A DNA stretch of 28,093 nt from the NCBI GenBank assembly GCA_043819385.1, contig JBDREW010000015.1, forward strand, positions 1-28,093. The letters are read 5' to 3'. Below the pieces are notes generated by a model that searched no databases, was not told where the DNA came from, and worked only from the letters and a program-made list of their open reading frames with translations. This document shows positions 32 through 25,860 of this stretch, piece after piece. The stretch's first letter is position 1. Every line of letters begins with the position of its first letter. The stretch is from Candidatus Nealsonbacteria bacterium (GTDB lineage Bacteria; Patescibacteriota; Minisyncoccia; Minisyncoccales; GWA2-38-27). The position numbers were made by a program, and so were the translations under genes.

Positions 32-772
32 TTATCCCAAAAATAAATCTTTGGATTTATTTAATTCTGACTCATTCAGCTCTTTTTTAAACATAACCCA
101 ATTTTCAATAAAATCTCTAAATCCTTGTTTTCCTTCCATTATTTCTGTCATAAATTCTCTTTCTGTGACAGAAGGAAAGTTTTTATTTTCTAAATAATCA
201 GGATAACTTGACCACTTATATTCTTGTTCTAAGAATTTAATAACTCTTTCTGGATCTTTAATTCCTATTTCTTTCCACTTTGGTTCTATTATTGATATAG
301 GGTTAGTATGTATATATGTAAATGTTATTTTTAATTGATTATTATCTTCTATTAAAACCGATTTAAATTTATCCTGAAATACATGTCCCTTCCTCTCATA
401 TTTTTTATTAAAATAACTAGCATAACCAGTACCAACTTTACTCATAAATTTAGTTATTCCATTATCTTTCATCTGTTTCAATAACAAATGAATATGATTA
501 GGCATAAAACAAAAAGCTAAAATATCAACAAATTTATCTCTTTTATCAATAATTTTATCGGATTGTGGAGATATAGTTTGCAATAATTTTTCTCTTTTAC
601 GCTCTACCCTCCTTTCTCTAATTTCTATTAATTTATCATTATTAAACTCATAAATAGAAAAAATACCACGATAATAATCGTCTTTATTTTTAAAAAGTAA
701 ATTATCATCTACTATTCTTAAAACAACATGATAAATCTCTCCATTAATAAATTCTCTTTTGTTACGAGGCAT
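32..772 (-). CDS. HUH / Y1 tyrosine transposase, IS200-like, REP-associated (RAYT-like)
   Basis: 246-aa ORF. It has N-terminal YHVVLR, the HUH motif MPNHIHLLL and a C-terminal YIHTNP catalytic-Tyr motif typical of Transposase_17/RAYT proteins. A GC-rich REP-like palindrome lies just upstream at 802-845. Confidence 0.7.
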   Translation of the reverse strand: MPRNKREFINGEIYHVVLRIVDDNLLFKNKDDYYRGIFSIYEFNNDKLIEIRERRVERKREKLLQTISPQSDKIIDKRDKFVDILAFCFMPNHIHLLLKQMKDNGITKFMSKVGTGYASYFNKKYERKGHVFQDKFKSVLIEDNNQLKITFTYIHTNPISIIEPKWKEIGIKDPERVIKFLEQEYKWSSYPDYLENKNFPSVTEREFMTEIMEGKQGFRDFIENWVMFKKELNESELNKSKDLFLG

Positions 773-2099: not shown

Positions 2100-2280
2100 A
2101 CTGAAAAAGAGAAAGGGAAAGCTAAAAAAATACTAGACCTCTTTAGAGAGATGAAAGAAGCTGGTAGAAGTTAGACCTCTTAATTATTAAAGAAAAAGGG
2201 AGAAAGATAGTAGGGGTCTGACCTCTTAAGAGGGGTGAGGAGAAAGCTAGTAGGGGTCTGACCTTTGTTCCAATTTCCAA
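2100..2280 (+). repeat. degenerate tandem array (~4 units of ~40 bp) related to the dispersed AGCTGG..CGACCTCT repeat family
   Basis: Recurring gaaag(a)agctgg...tagacctctt and agtaggggtctgacct units within a 688-bp non-coding stretch. Confidence 0.5.
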
Positions 2281-2290
2281 GTTATAAGCT
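2266..2290 (-). repeat. degenerate copy of heptamer module (gttccaatttccaagttataag, reverse complement of CTTATAA-CTTGGAA-like)
   Basis: Matches the end of the (GTTCCAA)16 array plus GTTATGAG at 12040-12060. Confidence 0.4.
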
Positions 2291-4171: not shown

Positions 4172-4186
4172 ATTTATTTATTTTCA

Positions 4187-4338
4187 AGCGAGCGAGAGAA
4201 ATGTGAAAGCTTGCTTTCACATTTCCGAGCGAGTGCTGAAAATGTATGTATTAAATACATTTTTTAATACCCCCACCCCTTGGGGTGGGATAAATATAAG
4301 TCTTTTGGGTGGGGTATAATACCCCAACCAAAAGTTCA
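4187..4338. repeat. block of four hairpins/palindromes filling the gap between the VirB4 halves
   Basis: The four elements are 4187-4237 agcgagcgagagaaatgtgaaagc/ttgc/tttcacatttccgagcgagtgct, 4240-4266 aaaatgtat-gtattaa-atacattttt, 4268-4291 ccccacccc-ttgg-ggtggg, and 4296-4330 cttttgggtggggtat-aat-accccaaccaaaag. Confidence 0.7.
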
Positions 4339-4355
4339 ATATATTCATATTTATT

Positions 4356-6161
4356 ATGAAATTACCATTTACAAAACAATTTAAAAGGAGAGAGAAAATC
4401 ATAGAACTTCCTGTACCATCTCAATCTGTTCAAATTTCTGATGTTATTGCTCCTTCTTTTATTGAAGTTAAGCAAAATCATATCAAAATAGGAGAACGTC
4501 TTGCTAAAACCTATTTTATTTTTTCATATCCAAGATATTTAACTACTGGATGGCTTTCTCCAATAATAAATCTAAATGTCCCAATGGATATTTCTTTTTA
4601 TCTTCATCCTGTTGAATCAGGAAAAATTTTAAAACAATTAAGAAGAAGAGTTACTGAAGTCCAAGCAGAAATTGGCGAAAAAGAAGAAAAAGGACAAATT
4701 AGAGACCCACAATTAGAAACAGCTTATGGCGATTTAGAAGAATTAAGAGACAAGCTCCAAACTGCCCAAGAAAGGATGTTTTATTTTGGATTATACCTAA
4801 CTATTTATGCTGATTCCGAAAAAGAACTAAGAGACACTGAAACAAACTTAAGATCAATTTTAGAATCTAGATTAATTTATATTAAGCCCGCTCTTTATCA
4901 ACAAAAAGAAGGATTTGTTTCTACTTCTCCATATAATTTAGACGTTCTAATGATTTCTAATTTGATGAACACTGGGCCTTTGTCAAGTATGTTTCCATTT
5001 ATTTCTTTTGATTTGAGTTCAAATGAAGGAATTCTTTATGGAATTAATAGGCACAACAATTCACTTGTTTTATTCGACCGATTTACTTTAGCAAATGCAA
5101 ATTCAGTAATTTTTGGAATATCAGGAGGAGGAAAATCCTATGCTATAAAATTAGAAATTTTAAGATATTTAATGCTTGGAACTGATGTTATAATTTTAGA
5201 CCCTGAAAATGAATATAAGTTTCTTTCAGATGCTGTTGGCGGGTCTTTTTTTAATATATCTTTGGCCTCTCCACATCATCTTAATCCATTTGATTTACCA
5301 CAACCAAGAGAAGATGAACTCGTAGAAGATGTTTTAAGAACAAACATTATGAATTTAGTTGGATTGATAAGAATAATGCTTGGTGGATTGACACCAGAAG
5401 AAGACGCAATTATTGATAGCGGATTAACTGAGACCTATGCTGCAAAAGATATTACTGCTAAATCAGATCCAAAACTATGGGGAAAAGAAGATGGATTAGA
5501 ATTTCCTATTATGAGTGATTTTGAAGAAGTTCTTTCAACAATGGAAGGAGCAGAATCATTAGTAAGACGACTTCAAAGATTTACCAAAGGAGTCTATTCA
5601 AGTTTTTTTAATCAACGAACTAATATAGATGTAGATAAAAGAATGGTTGTTTTTGGTATTCGTAATATGGAAGACGAACTTCGTCCAATGGCTTTATTTA
5701 TGATTTTAAGATTTATTTGGAAAACCGTTAGTGCCAAAATGAAAAAACGACTTTTAGTTATTGATGAGGCATGGTGGTTAATGCAAAATGAAGATGGTGC
5801 TTCTTTCTTATTTGGAACAGTTAAAAGGGCTAGAAAATACTGGCTTGGAGTTACTACTATTACCCAAGATGTAGCTGATTTTATGAAATCTGAATATGGT
5901 CAACCAATTATTACTAATTCATCACTTGCTTTATTGATGAAACAAAATCCAGCAACAATAGAAGTTGTTAAAAAAACTTTCAACCTAACTGAAGAAGAAA
6001 AGCTTTTACTTTTAGAAACACCCGTTGGAGAAGGTATATTTTTTGCCGGAACAAAACATGTTTTAGTTAAAATATTAGCTTCATATGCCGAAGATCAAAT
6101 AATTACAACTTCCCCTGAAGAAGTTGAGAAAATAAGACAAGCAAAAAAAGAATTAGAATAA
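4356..6161 (+). CDS. virB4: VirB4/TrbE/PrgJ-family T4SS ATPase (ATPase part)
   Basis: 601 aa with Walker A GISGGGKS, Walker B LLVIDEAW, and the IGERLAKTYFIFSYPRYLTTGWL and ILDPENEY motifs characteristic of VirB4 ATPases. Confidence 0.85.
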   Translation: MKLPFTKQFKRREKIIELPVPSQSVQISDVIAPSFIEVKQNHIKIGERLAKTYFIFSYPRYLTTGWLSPIINLNVPMDISFYLHPVESGKILKQLRRRVTEVQAEIGEKEEKGQIRDPQLETAYGDLEELRDKLQTAQERMFYFGLYLTIYADSEKELRDTETNLRSILESRLIYIKPALYQQKEGFVSTSPYNLDVLMISNLMNTGPLSSMFPFISFDLSSNEGILYGINRHNNSLVLFDRFTLANANSVIFGISGGGKSYAIKLEILRYLMLGTDVIILDPENEYKFLSDAVGGSFFNISLASPHHLNPFDLPQPREDELVEDVLRTNIMNLVGLIRIMLGGLTPEEDAIIDSGLTETYAAKDITAKSDPKLWGKEDGLEFPIMSDFEEVLSTMEGAESLVRRLQRFTKGVYSSFFNQRTNIDVDKRMVVFGIRNMEDELRPMALFMILRFIWKTVSAKMKKRLLVIDEAWWLMQNEDGASFLFGTVKRARKYWLGVTTITQDVADFMKSEYGQPIITNSSLALLMKQNPATIEVVKKTFNLTEEEKLLLLETPVGEGIFFAGTKHVLVKILASYAEDQIITTSPEEVEKIRQAKKELE

Positions 6162-6235
6162 TATAGTAAAATTAAAAATCAAAATGCAAAATGCAAAATA
6201 ACAAATTAAAAATCAAAATGGGAGAGGAGGGAAAA

Positions 6236-6300
6236 AGCTGGAAAGAGCCCCGACCTCTCTTAGAGAGGGAGAGGAAGTTTTTTAGAGGTCGGGGTTCGGG
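6236..6300 (+). repeat. dispersed structured ~65-bp repeat (copy 1): AGCTGGAAAGAGCCCCGACCTCTCTTAGAGAGGGAGAGGAAGTTTTTTAGAGGTCGGGGTTCGGG; internally deleted partial copy at 6341-6366
   Basis: Inverted repeat CCCCGACCTCT / AGAGGTCGGGG enclosing a CTCTCTTAGAGAG palindrome. Near-identical copies at 27665-27727 (+) and 21238-21310 (-). Confidence 0.8.
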
Positions 6301-6424
6301 AAAGGGAAATTAAATATTAAAACGGAAAGAGAGAAAGGAAAGCTGGGAAGAGGTCGGGGCTCGGGAGATGGAGAAGGAAAGATTAAAAATTAAAATCAAA
6401 ATGAAAGGAGAAAAAAATAAATAA

Positions 6425-6880: not shown

Positions 6881-6900
6881 AAACAAAGAAAGAATATAGA

Positions 6901-6948
6901 TTTACGGGGGTCTTACCCCCGGAGCTCCGGGGGTAAGACCCCCGTAAA
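6901..6948. repeat. REP-like 48-bp perfect palindrome (tttacgggggtcttacccccggag|ctccgggggtaagacccccgtaaa), centre GGAGCTCC
   Basis: Its reverse complement equals itself. It belongs to the same family as 802-845. Confidence 0.8.
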
Positions 6949-6964
6949 TTCTTTCTATAAATTA

Positions 6965-9022
6965 ATGGATAATGAAAAAAAAACAAAAGATATAAAAAGA
7001 GTTTTTTTTGGATTTTTAATCCTCTTTTTTTTATTTTTTACAAATATTGTTTTTGCTTTAGAGGTTGATTATCCATCATTTCCTGGAATACCAGATATCA
7101 ACAATTCAACATCAATGGAAGATATCACTATTTATAGGTTTAGATTTATTATTATAATTTCTGGATTTATAGCTTTATTATCTTTAGTAATAGCTGGAGC
7201 TCGTTATCTTACCTCAACCGGAAAACCAGATAAAATGGCGTCTGCCAAAGAACAAATCTCAAATGCTTTTTTTGGTCTTTTACTTTTATTGTCATCATTC
7301 CTTTTACTTCAAGCCATAAGCCCTAAATTTGTTGAATTAGGAATAACAAAACCAGAAAAAATTGAAACACCAGAAATTATAGAAACATCCGACTTCCCAA
7401 TTCAAGAGTTTAGGTCATCAATATATACTGAAATCCCTTTTGGAAAAATAATTGAACAATATATATTAGAAAATAAAAATACAATTGAAGAAGATAAAAA
7501 AGACAAAAGAAAATCAAGAATGGAAAGAATTTTAGATATTGGAGAAAACTCATTACAACTTGGCGAAAAATTAAAAAAACAAAGTGAAGAATTAAAAGAA
7601 CTTGCTCAAAAATGCGATTGTACTCAATTAAAAACTTGCTGTGAAAATTCTAATCCAGGGCCTGCCTGCACAAGTAATCTTTGTGTTTCAAAACCAGGAT
7701 GTACTGGAGACCCATGTAAAAATTCAAGAGATAATATCCAAAAAAAAGAAAAAGAAAATTTAAAAGCAATGTATGAGGGAACAGAAGTTAAACAAGATGA
7801 TATTTCTGGAAATTCTTCTCAAGTCACAACTAGCTTAAGAACTGAACAAGAAAGGGCTTCCCAAGAAATTCGACTTATAAAATATGAGATAGATAAAATA
7901 GAAAGAGCGGAAACCTTTATGATAGAATGTCCATTATGGTCAATAACAAATTTATCTGATTATTTAGATACAAAAAACTTTTATTTAGAAAAAAAATGGA
8001 GATTTGAGCCAGTTAATTTTTGGTCGGATATAAGGGTAATTGATGATTGGGCAACTGTTTATTGTGCAGTAAGTGGTAATACTTGGGAATCAAATTATCA
8101 AGAATCATCTGGCAAGATAGAAGATCTTTCAAAATCAGTGAAACGATCATATCAAGGATTTTCTAGCGACAAAGAACCAGTCACTTGTACAACTGAAATT
8201 TCAATTGGTGAGCTTATGGATAGAGCCAAAAGAACTGGATATAAATTAGTAGAAAGATTAGAAAAAATTATTGATTTGAATGAACAATTAACAAAAGCTG
8301 TTAATGACCTTCATACATTAGTAAGTCAATGCTCATCTCTCGGACCATCCGCTGATCCTCCACGAGCAGGTTGTTTTTCTCAATGCCATAAAACAATTCT
8401 TAACGCTTGTATTAAACAATGTATAGGTTTAGCTCCAGGATGGCAAGGACCTTGCCCAGCTCAAAAAATTGAAGAAAAAATTAAAGAAATTAAAGATATT
8501 GTAGAAGGAGTTCCAAACCAACCAGCTGAAAATGAAGAAAAAAAGGAAAAAGAAGGGATAAAAGATGTACTTGAAGCCAAGAAAAAAACAAAAAAAGAAG
8601 CTATTGAAGATAACGCAACAAGAGAACAAATAGGTATAAAACCAATTGTCAATGAAGTTGTTCCAAAAATAATTGAAGATTTGGCTGGAATGGTCAGAAA
8701 TCCTATTAAAAAATGTGTTTCTGGATTTACAGGGATAAGTCAAGTATTAAGCTGTAGCAATAGTATTAATGGAATAGGGCCAGAAGATAAATTAATTAAA
8801 GAATGTTGTTATAACGAAAAATGGTTTCAAGAATGTCTTGGTCAATGTTATTTAGAGGGTCCTAAAAATGAATCATCTGATAATAATTCAACAGGAAAAA
8901 AAGAGGAAAGCGAATATAAAAAATGTTTAAAAAGCTGTCAAGATAAAAAAGCCAAAGAAACTAAAATAGACGCAATATCTGATTGTCTTCATTTAATTAA
9001 TTTCTATTGTTGCTCACCATAA
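6965..9022 (+). CDS. VirB2/TrbC-like pilin-domain protein with long Cys-rich/coiled-coil C-terminal extension (paralog 1, 685 aa)
   Basis: Signal peptide, then LEVDYPSFPG, then a hydrophobic helix ...ISGFIALLSLVIAGARYLTSTGKPDKMASAKEQISNAFFGLLLLL... that aligns with the short pilin at 27067-27501. The C-terminal ~530 aa carry multiple CxxC/CC clusters and Lys/Glu-rich coiled coil. Confidence 0.7.
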   Translation: MDNEKKTKDIKRVFFGFLILFFLFFTNIVFALEVDYPSFPGIPDINNSTSMEDITIYRFRFIIIISGFIALLSLVIAGARYLTSTGKPDKMASAKEQISNAFFGLLLLLSSFLLLQAISPKFVELGITKPEKIETPEIIETSDFPIQEFRSSIYTEIPFGKIIEQYILENKNTIEEDKKDKRKSRMERILDIGENSLQLGEKLKKQSEELKELAQKCDCTQLKTCCENSNPGPACTSNLCVSKPGCTGDPCKNSRDNIQKKEKENLKAMYEGTEVKQDDISGNSSQVTTSLRTEQERASQEIRLIKYEIDKIERAETFMIECPLWSITNLSDYLDTKNFYLEKKWRFEPVNFWSDIRVIDDWATVYCAVSGNTWESNYQESSGKIEDLSKSVKRSYQGFSSDKEPVTCTTEISIGELMDRAKRTGYKLVERLEKIIDLNEQLTKAVNDLHTLVSQCSSLGPSADPPRAGCFSQCHKTILNACIKQCIGLAPGWQGPCPAQKIEEKIKEIKDIVEGVPNQPAENEEKKEKEGIKDVLEAKKKTKKEAIEDNATREQIGIKPIVNEVVPKIIEDLAGMVRNPIKKCVSGFTGISQVLSCSNSINGIGPEDKLIKECCYNEKWFQECLGQCYLEGPKNESSDNNSTGKKEESEYKKCLKSCQDKKAKETKIDAISDCLHLINFYCCSP

Positions 9023-9027
9023 AAAAA

Positions 9028-10626
9028 ATGTTTAAAAAAATCATTATTCTAATATCTGCTTTTTTAATTATTGGTTTTATTTTTGCTCCTATTTCTTATG
9101 CTCTTGAAACTAATTATCCATCAGTCCCCGGAGCTTCACAACCATCAGACCAAACATCTTTACCAGATTTTGTAAAATATATTTTTGTACTTTTAATCGC
9201 TGGATCTGGAATTATTGCTATATTTAGTTTAACAATAGCTGGATTCCGTTATTTAAATTCAGGAGGAAATCCAGAAAAAATAAAGCAAGCAAGAGGTCAA
9301 GTATTATCAGCTTTTTGGGGAATTATGATTTTATTAGGTTCTTGGGTTATTCTAAATATTATCAATCCAAAATTAACTTCTTTAGAATTAGAAGACCCAA
9401 TTCCTGTTCCTGGTGTAGAAATACCTGCTCCTCCAATTTATTCTATTCCTACTTCAGATCTTTTATTAAGAGTAAAATTATTAGTTGAGGCAACAAAAAA
9501 AACTCCTGATTATATAAAAGAAACAGCTAAAAAAATAAAAGAATTAACTGATAAGTGTGATTGTGGAAATACTCAATCCATTTGTGCTTGTGAAAAAGGA
9601 GGACAATCATCATTAGATAAAAAACCATGGGATTATAGTTTAGATAATTACGATACAGATATCTTTTTATTATCTTATGAAAAAAAACCAATAATTATTC
9701 CTAAAACATTTAATGATAGCATAGAACCAATCGGAGCAGGTGGAGAAACTCCATTTGGTGGTGGTGGTATAGAACCAATTGGAGCAGGTGGAGAAACTCC
9801 ATTTGGTGGTGGTATAGAACCAATTGGAGCAGGTGGAGAAACTCCATTTGGCGGTGGTGGTATAGAACCAATTGGAGCAGGTGGAGAAACTCCAGGAGAG
9901 CCTGGAGGAGAGCCTGGAGGAGAATCTGGAGGAGAACCCGAAGGAGAGCCCGAAGAAGGAGGACCAGATCAAAATTTAATTTGTAAACCAAAAACTTGCT
10001 ATATTGGACAATCCTCTAACCCTTGCCCTGACAAAGAAGATATTAAAAAATATGAAAAAGCTCTTATTGACCAAAAAGATATGATTTTCTATTATAAGAA
10101 TAGGGTATATGAAGAAAGAAATGATTTAACCACTGATATAGAACAATTTATAGATAAAGAAATATCTTGGTACGAAGAACAAATACAGGCTGAGGAAAAA
10201 TTAGAGGACTGGGGAGGATTAAAACAAAGAAAAATAGATTTTCTTCAAGAAAGAAAAAGCTGGTTAGAACAAGAAAAAAAATACAAACAAGAATTAATCC
10301 AAGAGCTTGAACAACTTGCTCAAATTATTGAAAAAATAGGAGATCCATCTATAAAAATTCCTCAACTATCAAATCAATGTTTAATAAATGTAAAAACAAA
10401 ATGTCAGGCAAGATGTAAACAAAGCAATGACAATGGATGTATTGATAAAGTAAAAGGGTGCGAACCAGACTCTTGTACGGGAGGAAATCCATGTTCAACT
10501 GGTGAGATACAATCTGAAATAAGTAAAATTGAACAAATTTCTCAAGAAATCAAAAGTAAATGTGATCAAATAATTTCTACTATAAACAATATAGAAAAAG
10601 AAAAAACTCCAACTAAAACGCTTTAA
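9028..10626 (+). CDS. VirB2/TrbC-like pilin-domain protein with repeat-containing Cys-rich extension (paralog 2)
   Basis: Same N-terminal architecture (ALETNYPSVPG, LPDFVKYIFVLLIAGSGIIAIFSLTIAGFRYLNSGGNPEKIKQARGQVLSAFWGIMILLGSWVILNIINP). The track start at 9007 is TTG; ATG at 9028 is more likely. Contains tandem IEPIGAGGETPFGGGG and GEPGG repeats and Cys clusters. Confidence 0.7.
   Translation: MFKKIIILISAFLIIGFIFAPISYALETNYPSVPGASQPSDQTSLPDFVKYIFVLLIAGSGIIAIFSLTIAGFRYLNSGGNPEKIKQARGQVLSAFWGIMILLGSWVILNIINPKLTSLELEDPIPVPGVEIPAPPIYSIPTSDLLLRVKLLVEATKKTPDYIKETAKKIKELTDKCDCGNTQSICACEKGGQSSLDKKPWDYSLDNYDTDIFLLSYEKKPIIIPKTFNDSIEPIGAGGETPFGGGGIEPIGAGGETPFGGGIEPIGAGGETPFGGGGIEPIGAGGETPGEPGGEPGGESGGEPEGEPEEGGPDQNLICKPKTCYIGQSSNPCPDKEDIKKYEKALIDQKDMIFYYKNRVYEERNDLTTDIEQFIDKEISWYEEQIQAEEKLEDWGGLKQRKIDFLQERKSWLEQEKKYKQELIQELEQLAQIIEKIGDPSIKIPQLSNQCLINVKTKCQARCKQSNDNGCIDKVKGCEPDSCTGGNPCSTGEIQSEISKIEQISQEIKSKCDQIISTINNIEKEKTPTKTL
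9715..9960 (+). repeat. intragenic tandem repeats: 48/45-nt unit x4 (IEPIGAGGETPFGG(G)G) followed by 12-15-nt GGAGAGCCTGGA-type units
   Basis: Direct near-identical nucleotide repeats visible at 9721-9900. They are GC-richer than the flanks. Confidence 0.85.
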
Positions 10627-10632: not shown

Positions 10633-11862
10633 ATGAAAAAAAACATTATTTTATTATTAATATTTCCTTTAATTCTGATTTTATTTTTTCCGTTAATTGT
10701 AAATGGACAAGGAACGGAACCACGTGCCTTAGAGCTTGAATATCCTTCTTTTCCACCCGAAGCTTCTGCGCCGACAAGCACTACATCTTTACCAGATTTT
10801 GTAAAATATATTTTTGTTTTTGCCATAATTATTTCTGGCTTTATCGCATTATTAGTTATTGTTTATGCTGGTTTTGAATACACGGCCTCAATAGGATCTC
10901 CTAACAAAATACAAAGTGCAAAAGATAAAATAAATGGTGCTATTATAGGTTTATTAATATTAGCTGTTTCTTGGTTAATTCTTGATACTATCAATCCTCA
11001 ATTAGTTATTTTCCGATTGCCAAGCGAATTGCCATCTGCTATCCCTGATATAAGTCCTGGAGTTTATTTATGTTCTCAAAGAGTAGATATTTTAGGATTT
11101 TGGCAAAAAAGACAACAAGCTGAACGCGAAGAAGGAACAACCCAAAAACAAACATTTCAAGAATTAACAGGAATACTAAAAACAATAGAACAATATTGTG
11201 CTCCAACTAACCCAGTTCAAACATCAGGAGATATTAGCTCAGATATTGAAGATAAAATTCAATATGTTTATCTTGTACCATCTTTCAGGGAAGCCCAATA
11301 TGGAGCAATCCTTTATGAAGAAAGAGGATTTCAAGGTAAAAGTAGCGTATTTTACGGAACATCAACAGGATCAGGAGGAGTTTCTACATTAGATAAACCA
11401 ACTGAATGGCCTGTACGGAACATTCAAGCATCTTCAGCACGAGTTTTTATACTTAACTTTAATCCAGCTCCATCATGGGAAGCAAGATTATTTGAATTAG
11501 TCCACTTTAATAGAGACGACATAAAAGGAAAAAAAACTCCTGAAGCATGTAAACCAGGAGAACAGGGTTCATCAACGGCAACAGGAAATTGTCAAATACC
11601 TAAAAATAAAGATAATAAAAATGAAGTTGGATCAGTAAATATTGAAGGTAGTATGTTTGTTATATTTTTAAAAGAAGGGGGTGATTGGACAAGCTCATCA
11701 GATAATTATATCCAAGCAAATCCAGGCAATACTGATTTAAACAATACAGTAATGGGCACATGGAAAAGAGAAGAATGTGTTGAAAAAAGAGAACCAGAAC
11801 TACGAGATAGATATTATCCATGTGCTGAAAGGGGAGTTGTTGTGGGTGCAGATTTTTATTAA
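10633..11862 (+). CDS. VirB2/TrbC-like pilin-domain protein with globular C-terminal extension (paralog 3, 409 aa)
   Basis: LELEYPSFPPE, LPDFVKYIFVFAIIISGFIALLVIVYAGFEYTASIGSPNKIQSAKDKINGAIIGLLILAVSWLILDTINPQL, then ~280 aa with scattered Cys. Confidence 0.7.
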   Translation: MKKNIILLLIFPLILILFFPLIVNGQGTEPRALELEYPSFPPEASAPTSTTSLPDFVKYIFVFAIIISGFIALLVIVYAGFEYTASIGSPNKIQSAKDKINGAIIGLLILAVSWLILDTINPQLVIFRLPSELPSAIPDISPGVYLCSQRVDILGFWQKRQQAEREEGTTQKQTFQELTGILKTIEQYCAPTNPVQTSGDISSDIEDKIQYVYLVPSFREAQYGAILYEERGFQGKSSVFYGTSTGSGGVSTLDKPTEWPVRNIQASSARVFILNFNPAPSWEARLFELVHFNRDDIKGKKTPEACKPGEQGSSTATGNCQIPKNKDNKNEVGSVNIEGSMFVIFLKEGGDWTSSSDNYIQANPGNTDLNNTVMGTWKREECVEKREPELRDRYYPCAERGVVVGADFY

Positions 11863-11864
11863 AA

Positions 11865-11885
11865 CTCATAACTCATAACTCATAA
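11865..11885 (+). repeat. (CTCATAA)3 heptamer repeat beginning at the stop codon
   Basis: taa-aa-ctcataa-ctcataa-ctcataa-ctt. Confidence 0.7.
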
Positions 11886-11887
11886 CT

Positions 11888-11915
11888 TAAAAAATCCAGC
11901 AAAGCTGGATTTTTG
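11888..11915. terminator. bidirectional rho-independent terminator (aaaaaatccagc-aaa-gctggattttt) between convergent genes
   Basis: 7-bp stem atccagc/gctggat, flanked by an A-run and a T-run. A near-identical hairpin lies at 17118-17145. Confidence 0.7.
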
Positions 11916-11939
11916 ATTAACTAATAACCAAGTTTATTA

Positions 11940-12051
11940 GTTCCAAGTTCCAAGTTCCAAGTTCCAAGTTCCAAGTTCCAAGTTCCAAGTTCCAAGTTCC
12001 AAGTTCCAAGTTCCAAGTTCCAAGTTCCAAGTTCCAAGTTCCAAGTTCCAA
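11940..12051. repeat. (GTTCCAA)16 perfect heptamer microsatellite
   Basis: Sixteen units counted from 11940 to 12051. It ends at the jag stop codon (12053-12055). Confidence 0.95.
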
Positions 12052-12052
12052 G

Positions 12053-12514
12053 TTATGAGATTCTTGGTTTTATAACTAATCTTCTTTCATCTTTTTCTCC
12101 AATACTTTCAGTTATTATATCGCTTCTGTTAGCTAATTCAAGATGAATAATCCTTCGTTCATAAGCGGACATTGGCATTAATATTTTTTCCTGACTTGTT
12201 AAAGCAACATCATTAGCAAAAGTTTTTACTATTTCTTTTAAATACTCAATTTTTTTCTCTTTATAATTATTAATATCAAGATTGATATAAAATGGTTGAT
12301 TGATTTTACGCATTAATACTCTTTTCAAAAGATGCTGAATCTCTGCTAATGTTTGTCCATTTTGACCAATTAAAATTTTTGGATCTCCTGTTCTCATATT
12401 TACAAAAATTGTTTGATCATCTACTTTAAGATTTTCAACGTCCAACTCAAAACTAGTTTTCTGAAAAAACTGATTAACTTCTGATTTAATTGTTTCTAAA
12501 TCATTGAAATCCAT
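12053..12514 (-). CDS. jag: Jag/KhpB RNA-binding protein (KH + R3H domains)
   Basis: R3H signature PMSAYERRIIHLELA...ESIGEKDERRLVI. It lies downstream of yidC, the conserved synteny. Confidence 0.8.
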   Translation of the reverse strand: MDFNDLETIKSEVNQFFQKTSFELDVENLKVDDQTIFVNMRTGDPKILIGQNGQTLAEIQHLLKRVLMRKINQPFYINLDINNYKEKKIEYLKEIVKTFANDVALTSQEKILMPMSAYERRIIHLELANRSDIITESIGEKDERRLVIKPRIS

Positions 12515-13268: not shown

Positions 13269-13368
13269 AAAAATTCAATTTACAATTTTCAATTTACAAT
13301 CAATTAACCAATGTTTCAATTTTCAAACAGCTTATAAGAATACCTGTTTTTATTAAAAATTGTTTCAT

Positions 13369-13400
13369 TCCTGCCCGCATTGCTATACAAAGCGTTGCAG
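13369..13400. repeat. degenerate GC-rich hairpin (cctgcccgcattgcta...agcgttgcagacgg), related to 25822-25860
   Basis: Shares CCTGCCCGCAT(C/T)GCTA..AAGCGTTGC with the copy upstream of comM. Confidence 0.4.
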
Positions 13401-13434
13401 ACGGAAAAAATTAAACTGAAATTAAAAATTAAAA

Positions 13435-15962: not shown

Positions 15963-17093
15963 ATGAAACTCGAAATACTACAAGAAAAATTAAAAAATGG
16001 ATTAAGTATTGTTGAAAAGATTTCTTCTAAATCTTTATCATTGCCTATTTTAAATAATATATTAATTTCTACTGAAAAGAATTTTTTGAATTTATCTGCT
16101 ACTGATTTAGAAATAGGTATTAATTGGTGGACATTAACTAAAATTGAAGAACAAGGGAAAATTACAATTCCTGCACGTTTGTTTTCTAGTTTTATTAGTT
16201 TACTTCCTAATCAAAAAATTAATATTTATTCAAAAGATAATAATCTTTTTATTGGATATGAAAAATATAAAACAGAAATAAAAGGATTATCTGCTGATGA
16301 ATTTCCTATTATTCCTAAAATTGAACAAGGCGAATTTATTATATTAGATTGTAATTCTCTTTGTCAAAGTTTGTCTCAAGTAGTTGATATTTCAGTTCCC
16401 TCTACGACAAGACCTGAAATATCTGGAATATATTTTTTATTTCAAAAAAATCAAATAACTATGGTTTCGACAGATAGTTTTAGATTAGGAGAAAAAAAGA
16501 TATTTTTAAAAGAAAACTCTAATTCAAAACAAGATTATTCTTTAATTATTCCTCAAAGAGCTATTAAAGAAATTATTAATATCTTTGGAGAGAAAAAAGG
16601 TAATTTAAAAATTTATTTTTCTCCAAATCAAGTAATGTTTGAACTTTTGATGGAAGAAACAGATCATCCTCAAATACAACTTATTTCTCGTTTGATTGAA
16701 GGAGAATATCCTAATTATAAAGAAATTATTCCTCCTAAACATACAACTCAAATTATTTTAGAAAGAAATGAACTTCTTAATCAAATTAAAACAGCTAGTT
16801 TATTTGGAGGAAAAATAAATGAAGTAAAATTAAAATCTGATCTTAAAAAAGGAGAATTAGAAATTTTTAGTCAAAGTTCTGATATTGGAAAACATGAATC
16901 AACTATTAAAGCTAAAATAGAAGGAGAAGAAGTTGAAGTTGCTTTTAATCATAGATTTTTATTAGATGGATTAATGAATATTAGAAGCGCTGAAATTATT
17001 TTAGAGCTTAATGGTGATTCAGGCCCAGGATTGTTAAAACCAGTAGGGGATGAAACATATTTGTATGTTGTTATGCCCATTAAAAATACATAA
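15963..17093 (+). CDS. dnaN: DNA polymerase III beta sliding clamp
   Basis: 376 aa. Position after dnaA and three-domain clamp-like sequence. Confidence 0.9.
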   Translation: MKLEILQEKLKNGLSIVEKISSKSLSLPILNNILISTEKNFLNLSATDLEIGINWWTLTKIEEQGKITIPARLFSSFISLLPNQKINIYSKDNNLFIGYEKYKTEIKGLSADEFPIIPKIEQGEFIILDCNSLCQSLSQVVDISVPSTTRPEISGIYFLFQKNQITMVSTDSFRLGEKKIFLKENSNSKQDYSLIIPQRAIKEIINIFGEKKGNLKIYFSPNQVMFELLMEETDHPQIQLISRLIEGEYPNYKEIIPPKHTTQIILERNELLNQIKTASLFGGKINEVKLKSDLKKGELEIFSQSSDIGKHESTIKAKIEGEEVEVAFNHRFLLDGLMNIRSAEIILELNGDSGPGLLKPVGDETYLYVVMPIKNT

Positions 17094-17095
17094 CT

Positions 17096-17119
17096 CATAA
17101 CTTGGAACTTGGAACTTAA
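17096..17119 (+). repeat. heptamer module (CTCATAA)1(CTTGGAA)2CTT starting at dnaN stop codon
   Basis: taa-ctcataa-cttggaa-cttggaa-ctt. CTTGGAA is the reverse complement of the TTCCAAG unit of the 16-copy array. Confidence 0.7.
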
Positions 17120-17145
17120 AAAATCCAGCGAAAGCTGGGTTTTTA
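17118..17145 (+). terminator. rho-independent terminator (aaaaaatccagcgaaagctgggttttt)
   Basis: Same hairpin family as 11888-11915. Follows dnaN. Confidence 0.7.
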
Positions 17146-18485: not shown

Positions 18486-18514
18486 AACCTAAAAGTTCTT
18501 AGATAGGAACTTAA

Positions 18515-18542
18515 AAGGGAAGTCGATGACTTCCCTTTTTTC
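18515..18542. terminator. bidirectional terminator (aagggaagtc-gatg-acttccctttttt)
   Basis: 10-bp stem plus T-run. Follows the SPFH gene. Confidence 0.7.
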
Positions 18543-18557
18543 ATTTCCAATTTTAAA

Positions 18558-18581
18558 AGAGAATATTAATATTCTCTTTTT
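18558..18581. terminator. perfect palindrome hairpin agagaatattaatattctct + T-run; likely terminator for the convergent minus-strand gene and back-up for plus
   Basis: 20-bp perfect palindrome with flanking T/A runs. Confidence 0.5.
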
Positions 18582-18589
18582 AAATGCTT

Positions 18590-18624
18590 AATACATAATA
18601 CTAAATACTAAATACTAAATACTT
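18590..18624. repeat. (AATACTA)~5 heptamer tandem repeat abutting the stop of the VirB6-like gene
   Basis: aatacat aatacta aatacta aatacta aatactt. Confidence 0.7.
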
Positions 18625-20977
18625 ATTTCTTTCCCTTAGGTGGTCGTTTATATCCTCCTGGACCTGTTGTACCTTTTGGTTTTTTTCCTGATCCCGAACC
18701 AATCCCCATCCCAAAAGGATGTTTCTTTTTTGAAGGAGGCGTTGTTCCAGCTCCAGCACCAGGAGTATATTGAGATCCGCCACCCGGAGGAGTTGATTTA
18801 CTACTGTCTGAAACTAAACTTGCTAAATATTGTGGAGCTTTCCAATCATTACCCCACATTTTTGGATCAGATAATCCTTTAAAGTATCCTGCTTTGCCAT
18901 ATTCTTTTTCTAAATATTTTACATATTCTCTTACAGCATCATCCATTCCTGTTTCTTTATCCATACTTGCATCTCCCTCTTGATGTTCTCCTATTTTATT
19001 CATAAGATCTTTATTTTTATTTAGAAATTCAGAATATGCTTTGTTCATTCCTTCCATAGATGCTTTTTGTCCTTGTTTAACTGTTCTATGTATTTGTATC
19101 CATCTATCTTTATCAAATTCAGCCATAGCAGGCTCTATAATATTTATATTTTTTAATGTTCCGGGTTCCATTTTGGCAATATGTTGTCCTCTTGATTCTT
19201 CTAATGCTTTTTGTATTGATTGTTTAGGAGATAAGGTCTTATATCCTGGTATATTTTGACCTGCTGCAATAGCAGCTAATCGAGGATCAGATCTTAAAAA
19301 AGAGCTTAAAAAACCTGATTTGAATAATGATTGAAATGGGCTTTCCATTATCTTTTTAAATTCTTTATCTTCCATAAGATCATTATCTGTAACATCTTTA
19401 ACATTTTTACCTAATCTTTCGGCAATTCCCTTGCCAAAATATTTTTTACCATCTTTAAATATATCATCAGCATCTCCTACATCAATAGTCTGTTTTAATC
19501 TTCCAGCAGCTTCTTTTCCTATTACTTTTTTAGTAAATACATCTGTTAAATTTGTTGGAGTAGAATATTTTTTTGCTTCTTCTTGAGATTTTAATACATC
19601 AGGACGAATTTCTCCATAATCTTTAATTTTTTGAGGAAAAAACCATCTAGCAATAGGTATTTTTTCTGTAACTGTTTTGCTTGCCCATCCAGCTAAATCT
19701 TTTATTTTTGTTTGTTCCTCGATCCATGGTTTAGCTCCTCCCCATACTTTTTTACCCATCCATCCCATTGCTCTTTTAGGGGCCTTATATCCCAACCATC
19801 CCATTGCTTTTTGAGGAGCCCTAGCTCCGATTGTGGTTAAGGCGCCTGCTCCCATAGCTGATGTTTGAAGTCCAAAAAGTAATCCAATAAAAAGAAAAGC
19901 AACTGGAACAACAAATATAAATATACTTGCGCCTGTACTTAAATTTGCAACAGAATATCCAAGTTTGTCTGTTTGACTTGCTAATGTTTCTCCTAAATAA
20001 AGAAAAAACATACAAGTAACTCCAATTAAAGACCATTGAATCATCTGGTTCCACCATATATTAAAATATTTTTGAGTGGCTGGTAAAATATACGAAACAA
20101 AAGCAAGTGGAGATAAAATAACTAAAATCCAAATAGCAATATATCTTACTGCAAAAATTAAAGCAAATAAAAGATAAACAATGGCCATTATAAAATTAAT
20201 TATGGCAAGGGCTGTTATTTTTCCTACTTTTTCCATTAATCCAGCTCTTGTTGAATCTCTTGTTCCAGCAGAGCTTGTAGCTTCCCACAGACCTGCTGCT
20301 TCTTTGTCAAAAGAATCCTTAGCTTTTGATACTAAGTTTGCACCAACGCTTGTTTCTCCATTGTCTCCTGCCAAAGCATTAAGAAAAAAATTCATAGAGA
20401 TATTTCCTGCATCAACAATTAATCCACAAATAACAGGAGCAAAGTTTACCAATAGAGCTATGATAATAAAAGTTACTAATATTTTTCTATCTTGATATTT
20501 ATCTAATCTTAAAATAGTTGCCAAAGCAATCCAAACAAGAACAAGAACAAGAGTCATATTAACAAATCCTTGAGTAACACTTAATCCAGTTGCAATTATT
20601 GGATTATCAGCAGGATTAGTGTAGCTAATATTAATAAAATTATCGCTTAATACCCATCTGGCAAGAGAGGAAGTGAGAGTAGCAAAAGTAAGGGTGACCA
20701 TTCCTATTGCCCACGGAACTGCTCCTATTAATGTTGAAACAATAGATTCTGGCAAGGACCACAAAGTATCCATCCATCCAGGTTCAGATTCTGCGCTTGT
20801 TGACGGTGTTATAGTAGGGTTATCTATATCAAAGTCCCATGGAGTTTGAGCTTGTACTGGAGATAATTGGTAAAAAAATAAATTAGCAAAAAGAAATAAA
20901 AATAAAAAACAAAAAAGCTTTTTTTTGTTTTTCAACAAAAGAGAAAAATCAAAGATTTTTAACAATTTTTTAATCAT
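18623..20977 (-). CDS. VirB6/TrbL-like polytopic membrane protein with Gly/Pro/Lys-rich C-terminal tail
   Basis: 784 aa with a signal peptide and at least 6 TM helices in the N-terminal 400 aa. The C-terminal half is hydrophilic, with a low-complexity PPGGGSQYTPGAGAG...KKPKG tail. Size and topology resemble Tn916 Orf15/TrbL. No sequence-level motif confirmed. Confidence 0.55.
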   Translation of the reverse strand: MIKKLLKIFDFSLLLKNKKKLFCFLFLFLFANLFFYQLSPVQAQTPWDFDIDNPTITPSTSAESEPGWMDTLWSLPESIVSTLIGAVPWAIGMVTLTFATLTSSLARWVLSDNFINISYTNPADNPIIATGLSVTQGFVNMTLVLVLVWIALATILRLDKYQDRKILVTFIIIALLVNFAPVICGLIVDAGNISMNFFLNALAGDNGETSVGANLVSKAKDSFDKEAAGLWEATSSAGTRDSTRAGLMEKVGKITALAIINFIMAIVYLLFALIFAVRYIAIWILVILSPLAFVSYILPATQKYFNIWWNQMIQWSLIGVTCMFFLYLGETLASQTDKLGYSVANLSTGASIFIFVVPVAFLFIGLLFGLQTSAMGAGALTTIGARAPQKAMGWLGYKAPKRAMGWMGKKVWGGAKPWIEEQTKIKDLAGWASKTVTEKIPIARWFFPQKIKDYGEIRPDVLKSQEEAKKYSTPTNLTDVFTKKVIGKEAAGRLKQTIDVGDADDIFKDGKKYFGKGIAERLGKNVKDVTDNDLMEDKEFKKIMESPFQSLFKSGFLSSFLRSDPRLAAIAAGQNIPGYKTLSPKQSIQKALEESRGQHIAKMEPGTLKNINIIEPAMAEFDKDRWIQIHRTVKQGQKASMEGMNKAYSEFLNKNKDLMNKIGEHQEGDASMDKETGMDDAVREYVKYLEKEYGKAGYFKGLSDPKMWGNDWKAPQYLASLVSDSSKSTPPGGGSQYTPGAGAGTTPPSKKKHPFGMGIGSGSGKKPKGTTGPGGYKRPPKGKK

Positions 20978-21237
20978 TAATATATTCTACCAAAAAATAA
21001 GTTATTAACATATGTGGAAAACAATTAAAAATTATATTTTTAATTGTTTTCTAATTTTGAATTATTAATTTTGAATTTTGAATAAATTTTTAATGACTTA
21101 ATTTTGAATTCCCGAGACCCGATCTCTATTATTAAAACTCATAATTTAGAACTTATAACTTTTTAAAATCTGACTTTTTTTATCTTTCCTTTCTTTCTAT
21201 TTTGATTTTTGATTTTTCTATTTTTCTTCCTTTCCTT

Positions 21238-21310
21238 CCCCCCGAGACCCGACCTCTAAAAAACTTCCTCTCCCTCTCGAAGAGAGGTCGGGTCTCTACC
21301 AACTTTCCCT
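21238..21310 (-). repeat. dispersed structured repeat, inverted copy (reverse complement: ggtagagacccgacctctcttcgagagggagaggaagttttttagaggtcgggtctcgggg); 17-bp fragment also at 21111-21127
   Basis: Matches 6236-6300 over ~55 bp in reverse orientation. Confidence 0.8.
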
Positions 21311-21325: not shown

Positions 21326-22162
21326 TTAGTTTGTTTCTAAACTATGAGATAATCCAATCCAATCTTCAATAGTGAGTGTTTCAGCTCTTTGTTTTGGATT
21401 AATATTATTTTTTAAAAGTATTTTCTCAATTTTTTCTTTATCTATTTGTAAATTTTTAGATAAATTATTGATAAGTTGTTTTCTTGGTTGGGAAAATCCT
21501 GCTTTAATTATTTTAAAAAATAATTTTTTTTCAATTAAACTTTTATAATTATCAATAGGAGTAAGTTTAATAATTGAACTTTCAACTTTTGGTCTTGGAT
21601 AAAATGAATTACTTGGGATGCGAGATATAATTTCTGGTTTGCTAAAAAATTGAATTGAAATAGCTAATATATTTGATTTTGGAGGTTTAGCGCAAATTCT
21701 TTGAGCAACTTCTTTTTGAATAATAAAAATTAATTCTTTTGGAGGAATTTGGAGTTCTAAAAAATTTCTAATTACAGGGCTGGTGATATAAAAAGGTAGA
21801 TTGCCTACAATCTTAGAACTTTGAACTTGAAACTTGGTACTTGAAAGATTTAATTTGAGAATATCGTTGTTAATTATTTCAAGATTTTTAAAATCTTTTA
21901 GATTATCTTTTAAGATTTCACTTATTTTTTGATCTTTCTCAACAGCAACCACTTGTTTAGCTTTTTTGCACAATTCCTGAGTAATGGTTCCAATACCAGA
22001 TCCAACTTCTAAAATAGTGTCATTTGATTGGATATCAATTGTTTTGATAAATTTTTTAAGAATTATTTCATCAATTAAAAAATTTTGACCCAATCCTTTG
22101 GATAATTTAATTTTATTTTTTTCTAATAATTCTTTTATATCTTTTTTAGAAAGTAAATTCAT
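21326..22162 (-). CDS. rsmA: 16S rRNA (adenine1518/1519-N6)-dimethyltransferase KsgA/RsmA
   Basis: LGQNFL, VLEVGSGIGTIT SAM motif, NLPFYITSP. Confidence 0.9.
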   Translation of the reverse strand: MNLLSKKDIKELLEKNKIKLSKGLGQNFLIDEIILKKFIKTIDIQSNDTILEVGSGIGTITQELCKKAKQVVAVEKDQKISEILKDNLKDFKNLEIINNDILKLNLSSTKFQVQSSKIVGNLPFYITSPVIRNFLELQIPPKELIFIIQKEVAQRICAKPPKSNILAISIQFFSKPEIISRIPSNSFYPRPKVESSIIKLTPIDNYKSLIEKKLFFKIIKAGFSQPRKQLINNLSKNLQIDKEKIEKILLKNNINPKQRAETLTIEDWIGLSHSLETN

Positions 22163-22353: not shown

Positions 22354-23463
22354 ATGTCGTATACAAACTCAAACCAAAAAGAGATTGAATCCGATAAACA
22401 GATACTGAAACAAAAAAAGAGCTCTAAAGGAGCTAAAAAGTTTTTTGGTATATCTTTAGTTATTATTATTTTAGGAGTTATAATTTTTGGAGCAAAACCT
22501 CTTTTAAATTCCCTTGTTAATAGGGATTTTTCTTTTTTAACAGCTCAATCAGCTGATAAGATTTTTTCTCAAGAATTATTTATTGAACCAACAAAGAATT
22601 TTCTTAAAGAATCATCTGAAATGAATTTTGTTCAAGAAAATAGTATAATAGCTATTTCTGCCCCTTGGTCAGTTGCTTCTCGGGCTTTGGGGTCAATAGC
22701 AGAAGAAACAGAAATAACAGCTGAGGGATTAGATACAGGGCTTACAGAGTATATTGTAGAAGAGGGAGATACTATATCATCTATTGCTGATAAATTTAAT
22801 ATTTCTTTAGAAACAATTTTGTGGGCAAATGATTTAAGTAGCAAATCAACAATAAAGCCAGGGCAAGAACTTATGATTTTACCTATTTCAGGAGCTGTTC
22901 ATTTGGTAAAAGATGGAGACACTATTGGGACGATTGCTAAAAAGTATAAAGGAGAAATAGATGATATTGTTAGTTTTAATAATCTTACAAGTGAAGCAGA
23001 TATTTATGTTGGAGATATGTTAGTTATCCCTGGTGGAAAAATGCCAGCAATTCCAGTAAAAGTTGTTTCTACTCCTTTGGCTGAAACATATTTTATGTTC
23101 CCATGTGAAGGAAAAATATCACAAGGATCTCATGGAGCTTTTGGAAATGCTGTTGATATCGCAAATAGCTGTGGAAAGCCAGTAGTAGCTTCTGCTGGTG
23201 GAACAGTCCAAAGAACAGGGCCTGCTCCTATTGCTGGAAACATTGTAACTATTATGCATCCTAATGGAGTTGTAAGCTCTTATGGTCATCTTTCAACAAT
23301 TACTGTTGTTCCTGGTCAAGTAGTTGGAACAGGAGATATTATTGCTTATATTGGAAATTCTGGATATACAGTTGGACAAACTGGTTGTCATTTACATTTT
23401 GAAGTTCGTGGTGCTTCAAACTTTTTGGCTCAGTATAAAATTGGAAGCATTATTAAATGGTAA
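22354..23463 (+). CDS. LysM(x2)-M23 family metallo-endopeptidase
   Basis: An N-terminal TM helix, two LysM repeats (YIVEEGDTISSIADKFNIS..., HLVKDGDTIGTIAKKYKGE...) and an M23 core HGAFGNAVDI...GHLS...GNSGYTVGQTGCHLHFEVR. Confidence 0.85.
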   Translation: MSYTNSNQKEIESDKQILKQKKSSKGAKKFFGISLVIIILGVIIFGAKPLLNSLVNRDFSFLTAQSADKIFSQELFIEPTKNFLKESSEMNFVQENSIIAISAPWSVASRALGSIAEETEITAEGLDTGLTEYIVEEGDTISSIADKFNISLETILWANDLSSKSTIKPGQELMILPISGAVHLVKDGDTIGTIAKKYKGEIDDIVSFNNLTSEADIYVGDMLVIPGGKMPAIPVKVVSTPLAETYFMFPCEGKISQGSHGAFGNAVDIANSCGKPVVASAGGTVQRTGPAPIAGNIVTIMHPNGVVSSYGHLSTITVVPGQVVGTGDIIAYIGNSGYTVGQTGCHLHFEVRGASNFLAQYKIGSIIKW

Positions 23464-23579
23464 TTTTATAATTTTTAATTTTGAATTTCGAATGAATTTT
23501 TAATGAAATAATTTTCAAACGAAGAACCCTTGCAGGTTTTTTTATTTTTTGTTAAAATTAAAATATAATAAACAATATT

Positions 23580-25797: not shown

Positions 25798-25821
25798 ATT
25801 TTAAATTATAATTATAAATTA

Positions 25822-25860
25822 CCTGCCCGCATCGCTACGCGAAGCGTTGCGGGCGGGTGA
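25822..25860. repeat. GC-rich long hairpin acctgcccgcatcgctacgcgaagcgttgcgggcgggt upstream of comM
   Basis: Imperfect ~16-bp stem. A degenerate copy lies at 13369-13400. Confidence 0.6.

Follow-up and report, generated by a model that had tools for sequence, protein, structure and literature searches.

The window analyzed here is a whole contig of 28,093 bp (JBDREW010000015.1, assembly GCA_043819385.1; GC content 29%) from a metagenome-assembled genome (MAG) of a Candidatus Nealsonbacteria bacterium, a tiny organism of the groundwater type, and the elements under study are tandem arrays of seven-nucleotide units that lie between stop codons and terminator hairpins. The contig covers the origin region, with three pilin-like genes, jag-yidC-rnpA, dnaA-dnaN-SPFH and a TrbL-like gene, in that order. 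The third of the type IV secretion system (T4SS) pilin-like genes, pilin-3, is an open reading frame (ORF) at 10633-11862 on the plus strand (Pfam T4SS_pilin, E = 7e-8), and it is convergent with the jag/KhpB ORF at 12053-12514 on the minus strand. The dnaN ORF occupies 15963-17093 (plus strand) and the TrbL/VirB6-like ORF 18623-20977 (minus strand). The spacer between pilin-3 and jag contains the longest of the arrays and is organized as follows.

11860-11862, plus strand: pilin-3 stop codon TAA, from the ORF list
11863-11888, plus strand: AA-(CTCATAA)3-CTT, directly 3' of the pilin-3 stop
11889-11914, both strands: bidirectional hairpin resembling an intrinsic terminator, made of an A-tract, AATCCAGC, the loop AAA, GCTGGATT and a T-tract
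11921-11940, minus strand: small hairpin CTAATAA-ACTTGG-TTATTAG, the second in this spacer, which separates array and terminator on the jag transcript
11940-12051, minus strand: perfect repeat, (GTTCCAA)16 on the plus strand and (TTGGAAC)16 in the jag sense
12052-12059, minus strand: GTTATGAG, read CTCATAAC on the jag strand, which holds the jag/KhpB stop

A regular-expression count gave exactly 16 GTTCCAA units at 11940-12051. Tandem Repeats Finder reported this tract as (AGTTCCA)16.6 at 11939-12054 with period 7, and the tract after pilin-3 as (AACTCAT)3.6 at 11863-11887, both with 100% matches. The coordinates and unit counts that a preliminary description of this DNA had given for (CTCATAA)3, the hairpin and (GTTCCAA)16 were therefore reproduced, as was its statement that the long array ends at the jag stop, which is a TAA at 12053-12055 inside GTTATGAG. 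Together, (AACTCAT)3 and (AGTTCCA)16 form an inverted pair on opposite strands, 51 nt apart, and this is a single pair.

The heptamers after pilin-3 belong to a module that recurs elsewhere on the contig. It consists of a stop codon, three AACTnnn heptamers, AACTTAAAAAA and the AATCCAGC hairpin. Besides the copy after pilin-3, a near-identical copy follows dnaN and decayed copies are found elsewhere in the 28 kb.

17091-17117, plus strand: dnaN stop codon TAA, then CTCATAA-(CTTGGAA)2-CTT
17118-17144, no strand assigned: dnaN terminator hairpin AAAAAATCCAGCGAAAGCTGGGTTTTT, paralogous to that at 11889-11914
2266-2290, minus strand: degenerate module copy CTTATAA-CTTGGAA-ATTGGAA-C, away from gene ends
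21129-21175, plus strand: decayed module copy that keeps TTATTAA, AACTCAT-AATTTAG-AACTTAT and AACTTTTTAAAATCTGAC

Over 54 nt, the modules of pilin-3 and dnaN share about 85% identity, and their hairpins are one indel and one mismatch apart. The dnaN module and its hairpin had been described as members of the same family, and degenerate copies had been noted at two further sites; all were found, the latter at 2266-2290 (minus strand) and 21129-21161 (plus strand), each with 2 mismatches to CTCATAACTTGGAAC. Across the whole window there are 24 matches of the CTCATAACTTGGAAC type, compared to 0.96 expected by chance. The copy at 21129-21175 lies away from gene ends as well, has lost the 3' arm of the hairpin and is 88% identical to 11856-11888. 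The preliminary description had also proposed that unit numbers differ between copies (0, 2 and 16). The total, however, does not differ between the pilin-3 and dnaN modules, which contain three heptamers each: three CTCATAA and no CTTGGAA in the former, one and two in the latter. Between these modules the identity of the units differs and their number does not, and expansion is found on the jag side only. The core AACT of the unit is invariant, and the variants CAT, TGG, TAT and TAA occur both within and between arrays.

Both hairpins are predicted to fold stably, with -13.2 kcal/mol (z = -5.0) for the plus strand of 11889-11914 and -15.7 kcal/mol (z = -3.7) for 17118-17144, which also appears in the terminator scan. 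Each is flanked by A- and T-tracts, and the predicted folds have the features of bidirectional intrinsic terminators. The pilin-3 hairpin (AAAAAATCCAGCAAAGCTGGATTTTT, with arms AAAAAATCCAGC-AAA-GCTGGATTTTT) folds on the minus strand too, where it is predicted to be positioned to end the jag transcript. In contrast, the arrays themselves are predicted to be largely unstructured. Sense RNA of (CUCAUAA)6 has a folding energy of 0 kcal/mol and is predicted to be single-stranded, unlike its complement, which folds. RNA of the 16-unit array, at -4.2 kcal/mol, is less structured than shuffled sequences and unstructured on either strand. The units contain no G-run and fold with 0 to -4 kcal/mol, so they do not qualify as G-quadruplexes. 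Pairing of the two inverted arrays into one large hairpin was considered and rejected because it is limited to the 10-nt ends CTCATAACTT/AAGTTATGAG, and the CAT and TGG units are not complementary. (CTCATAA)3 contains one stop codon per frame on both strands (TAA on the plus strand, TGA on the minus strand), and all six frames of (CTTGGAA)n are free of stops. The sole Rfam match in the window is a tRNA-Lys, and no known RNA family was matched by the arrays or modules. As a separate observation, AACTTAAAA precedes three terminator hairpins (dnaN, 17113-17122; pilin-3, 11884-11893; SPFH, 18506-18516), so that the terminator A-tract and the last, partial heptamer are in register.

Period-7 arrays are not limited to these modules. 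Tandem Repeats Finder detected 12 in the whole window, including the following.

18581-18623, minus strand: 6.1 copies, 86% matches, TAAATAC on the plus strand and GTATTTA in the gene sense
18555-18581, minus strand: not an array but the terminator hairpin AAAAAGAGAATATTAATATTCTCTTTT that follows the TrbL-like gene and the array above
6168-6218, plus strand: (AAAATCA/AAAATGC)7.4, beginning 6 nt past the stop of a VirB4/TraG-like ATPase gene
23461-23488, plus strand: (TAATTTT)3.9, overlapping the stop of a LysM/M23 peptidase gene
13419-13434, minus strand: (AAATTAA)2.3, abutting the rnpA stop codon

The array at 18581-18623, described earlier as an AATACTA repeat next to the VirB6-like stop, indeed abuts that codon, and its first unit includes it. 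Units unrelated to the AACT type are thus also present: AAAATCA/AAAATGC follows the VirB4-like gene, TAATTTT the LysM/M23 gene and GTATTTA the TrbL-like gene. Intergenic DNA (5,480 bases) contains eight period-7 arrays, compared to 0.12 expected and a maximum of three in 200 Markov shuffles, while periods of 5, 6 and 8-12 are at the level of chance in the same kind of shuffle. Runs of period 7 extending over at least 11 positions were found in 7 of 21 gene 3' flanks and 2 of 22 gene 5' flanks, compared to 0.08 in shuffled flanks. The excess at 3' flanks indicates that heptamer periodicity is a general property of gene ends in this genome. Moreover, of the eight arrays, five or six have a stop codon within 7 nt of their start (binomial probability for six, ~3e-8). 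The anchoring at stop codons that had been suggested from the letters alone therefore holds, and it is most simply explained if the spacer from stop to terminator is the only place where arrays are tolerated.

Comparison with related lineages shows how these sites have changed. Exact-protein look-ups with Jag and DnaN gave no match in the collections searched, in which the best DnaN match was 80% identical and no closer strain was present. In three syntenic relatives, with DnaN 73-80% identical, the pilin/jag spacer is 55-95 bp long and contains a terminator only (A-tract, hairpin and T-tract). None of these orthologous spacers contains the 16-copy array, and the comparison demonstrates that, as judged from these assemblies, the array is a lineage-specific expansion. 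The dnaN stop has a different history. Five of nine sampled lineages, the window included, carry a tandem array there whose first unit contains the stop codon. The units are 7-mers in the window and octamers in the four other array-bearing lineages:

L004/L422: GTTGGTAA-type units
L423: (TAAGTTGG)5
L424/L425: (AATAAGCT)6.9
L006: (TAAAAANN)4

No array was found at the dnaN stop of four more distant lineages (L009, L426, L427 and L428). Tandem Repeats Finder detected mainly period-8 arrays in L004, L006, L423 and L424, at the ends of dnaA, dnaN and jag. Octamer arrays that begin at stops of jag, dnaA and dnaN lie at 1938-1982, 5422-5441 and 6814-6851 in L004, at 290-336 and 1701-1745 in L423, at 2459-2513 in L424 and at 11127-11160 in L006. 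Because octamers occur in the closest sister lineages (DnaN 76-80% identical), the preferred unit length differs between close lineages. Over the history of the dnaN site, an array has been either inherited or re-formed repeatedly, with turnover of its unit, period and length. In the lineages compared, this fast turnover of unit, period and copy number is as expected of simple-sequence repeats (SSRs). Near-identical assemblies of relatives revealed no indels, but the arrays there have only about seven units or fewer. L422 and L423 are close relatives whose downstream promoter regions are ~93% identical, but next to the octamer arrays (L422, 4488-4570; L423, 1701-1745) one of them has the dnaN terminator hairpin (AAAAACTGGGAGGTTAAACCTTCCAGTTTTT) and the other lacks it entirely.

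The CTCATAA/CTTGGAA junction was found at three loci when species-representative genomes were scanned for it. At one of them, in another Nealsonbacteria MAG, TAA-(CTTATAA)(CTCATAA)2 comes after the stop of a gene, whose ORF is unannotated, and lies opposite inverted TTCCAAG/TTATGAG units. The AATCCAGC hairpin had no match among the fetched loci, which include these three. For the degenerate motif (AACTYRK)3AACT there were at least 120 metagenome loci and 73 viral-contig loci, and among the matches listed the GC content ranged from 25 to 73%. However, 43, 62 and more than 120 viral-contig loci were obtained with three control cores matched in degeneracy, compared to 73 for AACT. AACT thus does not stand out as a core; it is heptamer SSRs that are generally abundant, and a conserved AACT element or vocabulary shared across bacteria was rejected. 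A 2:1 sense bias of AACT arrays upstream of start codons, among the matches listed, has a trivial explanation, in that the antisense of the commonest unit would put ATG in leaders. Arrays of the -35 element of extracytoplasmic function (ECF) sigma factors (GGAACTT) were likewise considered and rejected: L003 has GGAACTT-N15-TCTGA, and the modules of the window are without a matching -10 element.

The viral contigs do contain orthologous arrays of differing copy number. Loci L140 and L202 have eight AACTCAG units where L158 has three, with 250-nt flanks that are 100% identical, and L157 and L164 have three AACTCAT units where L192 has five, with flanks 97% identical. The position of variant units shifts as well. 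These orthologous length differences provide direct evidence for slippage of AACT-type arrays in nature. For the window, the slipped-strand expansion proposed at the outset is thereby supported indirectly: the 16-copy array is perfect, it is absent from three relatives, and arrays of the same type vary elsewhere (8/3 and 5/3 units).

A side observation from the same searches concerns inverted AACTnnn pairs. The arrangement (nnnAGTT)n-spacer-(AACTnnn)n was found in 20 of 22 metagenome cases and 24 of 26 with viral contigs included, among the matches listed; examples are L041, L043, L077, L085, L125 and L181 (metagenome loci are L012-L131). These pairs often fill the whole spacer, from stop to start codon, between co-directional genes. 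Control cores gave almost no inverted pairs, and the pair in the window has the opposite, rarer arrangement.

Several known systems resemble these arrays. Heptanucleotides are the most over-represented long SSRs in prokaryotes, and a polymerase footprint, meaning how much DNA the polymerase holds, has been proposed as the cause (Mrazek, 2007, as cited in PMC4679880 and PMC4692102). As represented in those citations, long SSRs share with the Nealsonbacteria arrays a 7-nt unit, an intergenic location, a length greater than chance and an attribution to polymerase slippage. They are, however, a statistical class without a defined anatomy in that account, whereas the arrays described here start at stops and end at hairpins, and sister lineages of the window carry 8-nt units at the same sites, unlike the class as cited. 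The arrays have two properties of prokaryotic long SSRs, being built of head-to-tail units of 1-11 nt at high identity and being longer and more frequent than composition predicts. The closest parallel is with the heptamer families of Xanthomonas (GGGAATC) and Nostoc (GGGGAYT), which comprise arrays of 2-26 units with a conserved core and variable positions (Rehm et al., 2015, PMC4692102). About 90% of those arrays are intergenic, at a mean distance of 28 nt from the upstream ORF, with 70-75 inverted pairs; array length varies between close species, and there are about 186 arrays per genome (PMC4692102). The period of 7, the core with variable positions, the intergenic location near the end of the upstream ORF, the inverted pair and the change of array length between relatives are all shared. 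In contrast, the units of Xanthomonas and Nostoc are G-rich and capable of forming G-quadruplexes while those of the window (AACTCAT and AACTTGG) are AT-rich and predicted to be unstructured, and the ~186 arrays per genome compare with a single 28-kb contig from a genome of the Candidate Phyla Radiation (CPR; Patescibacteria).

The TAACTGA direct repeats of marine Beggiatoaceae, cyanobacteria and Bacteroidetes (MacGregor, 2015, PMC4679880) share the AACT core (TAACTCA and GAACTTG in the window), an intergenic location, stop codons within the unit and a forward RNA predicted to be unstructured. However, they lie immediately upstream of starts, with a proposed role in translation initiation, and not downstream of stops, and TAACTCA is never a direct repeat in the Beggiatoa genome (PMC4679880, Table 3). 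The (TGAAAGA)13-38 tracts of Haemophilus influenzae hmw1A and hmw2A are likewise long perfect heptamer tracts of similar copy number that are subject to slippage, but they sit in promoters and tune transcription, while the Nealsonbacteria tract is 3' of both neighbors (PMC2651432). Repetitive extragenic palindromic (REP) elements and REPINs, with their REP-associated tyrosine transposases (RAYT), are short dispersed hairpin-forming repeats at gene ends, and a RAYT-like gene is present in the contig. REP elements are nevertheless not tandem heptamers, and the module hairpin, with two intact copies, differs from the palindrome that flanks the RAYT-like gene. No paper on SSRs in CPR/Patescibacteria was found in the literature searched. 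The arrays are a new example, from CPR bacteria, of an established class, that of intergenic heptanucleotide SSR families, and not a new kind of element.

Based on this evidence, the arrays are probably (a probability of about 60%) heptanucleotide SSRs that arose by replication slippage, have persisted between stop and terminator and grew from a small duplicated module. Replication slippage in this Nealsonbacteria lineage would favor 7-nt units, and new tandem copies would survive only where they are harmless, which in so compact a genome would be mainly the stretch from stop to terminator. Because the stop codon is often in the first unit, duplication of that unit leaves the protein unchanged. 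Once at least three perfect units were present, a tract would be expected to expand, and the TTGGAAC unit on the jag side may have reached this perfect-repeat threshold and grown to 16 copies. The genes are convergent and neither stop codon falls within the variable part, so a change in unit number should affect nothing but the length of the 3' untranslated region of jag. Judging from its position, the array should be unable to switch either flanking gene on or off.

Some observations weigh against this interpretation. Length instability at the jag locus is inferred, and the 16 copies come from a short-read metagenome assembly, so that the number may be inexact. Two near-identical terminator modules 5 kb apart require a copying step beyond slippage; the second copy could be due to gene conversion, to a small mobile cassette or to the RAYT-like transposase encoded at 32-772. 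In addition, the retention of dnaN-stop arrays in five related lineages could reflect selection, for a spacer or a stop barrier, and not neutrality.

The copying step leads to the first of the alternatives, in which the heptamers and the AATCCAGC hairpin constitute a REP- or MITE-like element (a miniature inverted-repeat transposable element) that spreads to gene ends as a mobile or copy-pasted terminator cassette. Mobilization might depend on the RAYT-like Y1 transposase, with heptamer number varying after insertion. This explanation is conceivable, if doubtful. The identity of the pilin-3 and dnaN modules extends through the hairpin, the TTATTAA found ahead of the pilin-3 module is retained in the decayed copy at 21129-21175 even though that copy lies away from gene ends, and 2266-2290 is a further partial copy. 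The terminators of the relatives at the pilin/jag and dnaN sites are mutually unrelated, and the difference between L422 and L423 in the dnaN hairpin also fits, as does the presence of the RAYT-like gene and REP-like palindromes on the same contig. The RAYT-like ORF (32-772, minus strand, 246 amino acids) matches the IS200-like Y1 transposase family (PF01797, E = 2e-11), and its best NCBIfam match is the REP-associated tyrosine transposase (REP_Tyr_transpos) at 46 bits, below the 80-bit cutoff. A GC-rich double palindrome of 45 nt (CGGGGGTCTTGCCCCCGGAGCTCCGGGGGCAAGACCCCCG) is directly upstream at 799-845, and a second copy, 86% identical, lies 6.1 kb away at 6896-6967; the AATCCAGC hairpin also has two copies in the contig. 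The ORF and its palindromes are a possible REP/RAYT system in a CPR genome. However, the palindrome beside the gene (CGGGGGTCTTGCCCCCGG...) is unlike the module hairpin, and none of the three loci recovered with the junction motif has that hairpin. The mobile cassette suggested in the preliminary description has limited support: two intact and two decayed copies of ~55 nt are visible in the 28 kb, but only these four, and neither target-site duplications nor terminal inverted repeats were seen. Selection on the 3' untranslated region is a further, unlikely alternative. The arrays could be a cis-element that acts as an unstructured spacer from ribosome to terminator, as a stop barrier in three frames or as a platform for an RNA-binding protein, with one GGA in each of the 16 UUGGAAC units. 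One third of gene ends in the window carry arrays, and the dnaN-stop arrays persist in five lineages despite changes in sequence, always with a period of 7 or 8 and never 6 or 9. As neither period is a multiple of 3, units with TAA, TAG or TGA place stops in all three frames, as (CTCATAA)3 does on both strands. The sense arrays are predicted to be single-stranded while the complement of CTCATAA folds, and both intact modules have exactly three heptamers (21 nt), so the arrays may hold the terminator at a fixed, unstructured distance from the terminating ribosome. On the other hand, the expanded CTTGGAA unit is free of stops in all frames, as are AAAATCA and AAAATGC, four of the nine sampled lineages are without the dnaN array, sixteen copies are far beyond the needs of a spacer, chance stops downstream of genes are frequent in a genome with 29% GC, and no binding protein was identified. 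It is improbable that arrays from stop codon to terminator are a maintained feature of this Nealsonbacteria subclade and not debris. If they were, the change to 7-nt units in this genome, where sister lineages have 8-nt units, would represent a lineage-specific alteration of the replication or slippage machinery, and a comparison of replisomes between 7-mer and 8-mer lineages would put the idea of Mrazek, that the polymerase footprint determines SSR unit length, to a direct test.

The remaining explanations concern the 16-copy array in particular. It is rather improbable that a real array owes its copy number, or even its placement, to short-read assembly through a repeat. Many heptamer arrays are at contig ends (among the metagenome matches listed), as happens when assemblers break, and 112 bp is close to common k-mer and read lengths. 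Nevertheless, the array is internal to the contig, its unique flanks carry on the conserved synteny in either direction, a typical read of 150 nt is longer than the array, and shorter arrays of the CTTGGAA unit occur elsewhere in the contig. A contingency locus, in which changes in copy number switch or tune a neighboring gene by phase variation, is suggested by the proximity of a long perfect SSR to surface-related T4SS pilin-like genes and by the precedent of the H. influenzae hmw promoters, where 13-38 heptamers exert control (PMC2651432). It is nonetheless very unlikely, because copy number should affect only the jag 3' untranslated region; the array is 3' of both convergent genes, a terminator separates it from the pilin gene, and promoter-like sites in the spacer are no stronger than the shuffled background. 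Least credible of all is a heptad operator or centromere, that is, contiguous 7-bp sites bound cooperatively by a ribbon-helix-helix protein. The model for such a system is the omega protein of plasmid pSM19035, a ribbon-helix-helix protein that binds contiguous 7-bp sites cooperatively. Sixteen contiguous identical heptads about 2.3 kb from dnaA would be compatible with this function, but Pfam scans of the window ORFs of at least 60 amino acids revealed no gene for ParA, ParB or a ribbon-helix-helix protein, unrelated heptamer units follow many genes, and the array is absent from the syntenic relatives.

Further repeats were observed in the window. The KsgA coding strand (ksgA, 21326-22162, minus strand) carries four degenerate AGTTCCA-like heptamers at 21812-21847, which encode STKFQVQSSK. 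This site is a loop 5 amino acids longer than in the L006 homologue, and the 16-copy array translated in the same frame reads (SSKFQVP)n. The loop may be a heptamer tract that entered the coding sequence. A dispersed GC-rich repeat of ~60-100 nt with an internal inverted repeat (AAAGCTGG..CCCGACCTCTCT..AGAGGTCGGGG) occurs at 6234-6300, 6339-6365, 21233-21297 (inverted) and 27663-27727, and in degenerate form at 2118-2265. Its copies are found in both orientations, share up to 93% identity and are often bordered by AAAATnn heptamer runs. Inverted repeats of 71 nt that are 83% complementary (2362-2432 and 4177-4247) bracket a 1.7-kb segment with three small genes, one of the PrgI family. Two small intergenic families of GC-rich hairpins are also present: one with the motif CCTGCCCGCATYGCTA..GCGTTGC (13338-13404 and 25790-25856) and a palindrome with a 20-bp stem, TACGGAGAGGTACTCTCCGGAATTCCGGAGAGTACCTCTCCGTA (26119-26164 and 26933-26955). 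Lastly, the second T4SS-pilin-like gene holds an in-frame 48-nt tandem repeat at 9721-9894 (3.7 copies, 93% matches) that is rich in glycine codons (GGTGGTGGT).

Overall, nothing in these results indicates a gene switch or a genetic element of a new kind. Among the long SSRs of bacteria, heptamer microsatellites are the most common, and this case provides a clean anatomy of stop, array and terminator in a genome of very small size. For this uncultivated lineage the 16-copy tract could serve as a strain marker, and assembly is likely to run into trouble there. The sister lineages, whose units at these sites have 8 nt, make a natural comparison possible for studying both the preferred unit of slippage and the neutrality of arrays at 3' ends, and this contrast between 7-nt and 8-nt lineages is the most useful lead.

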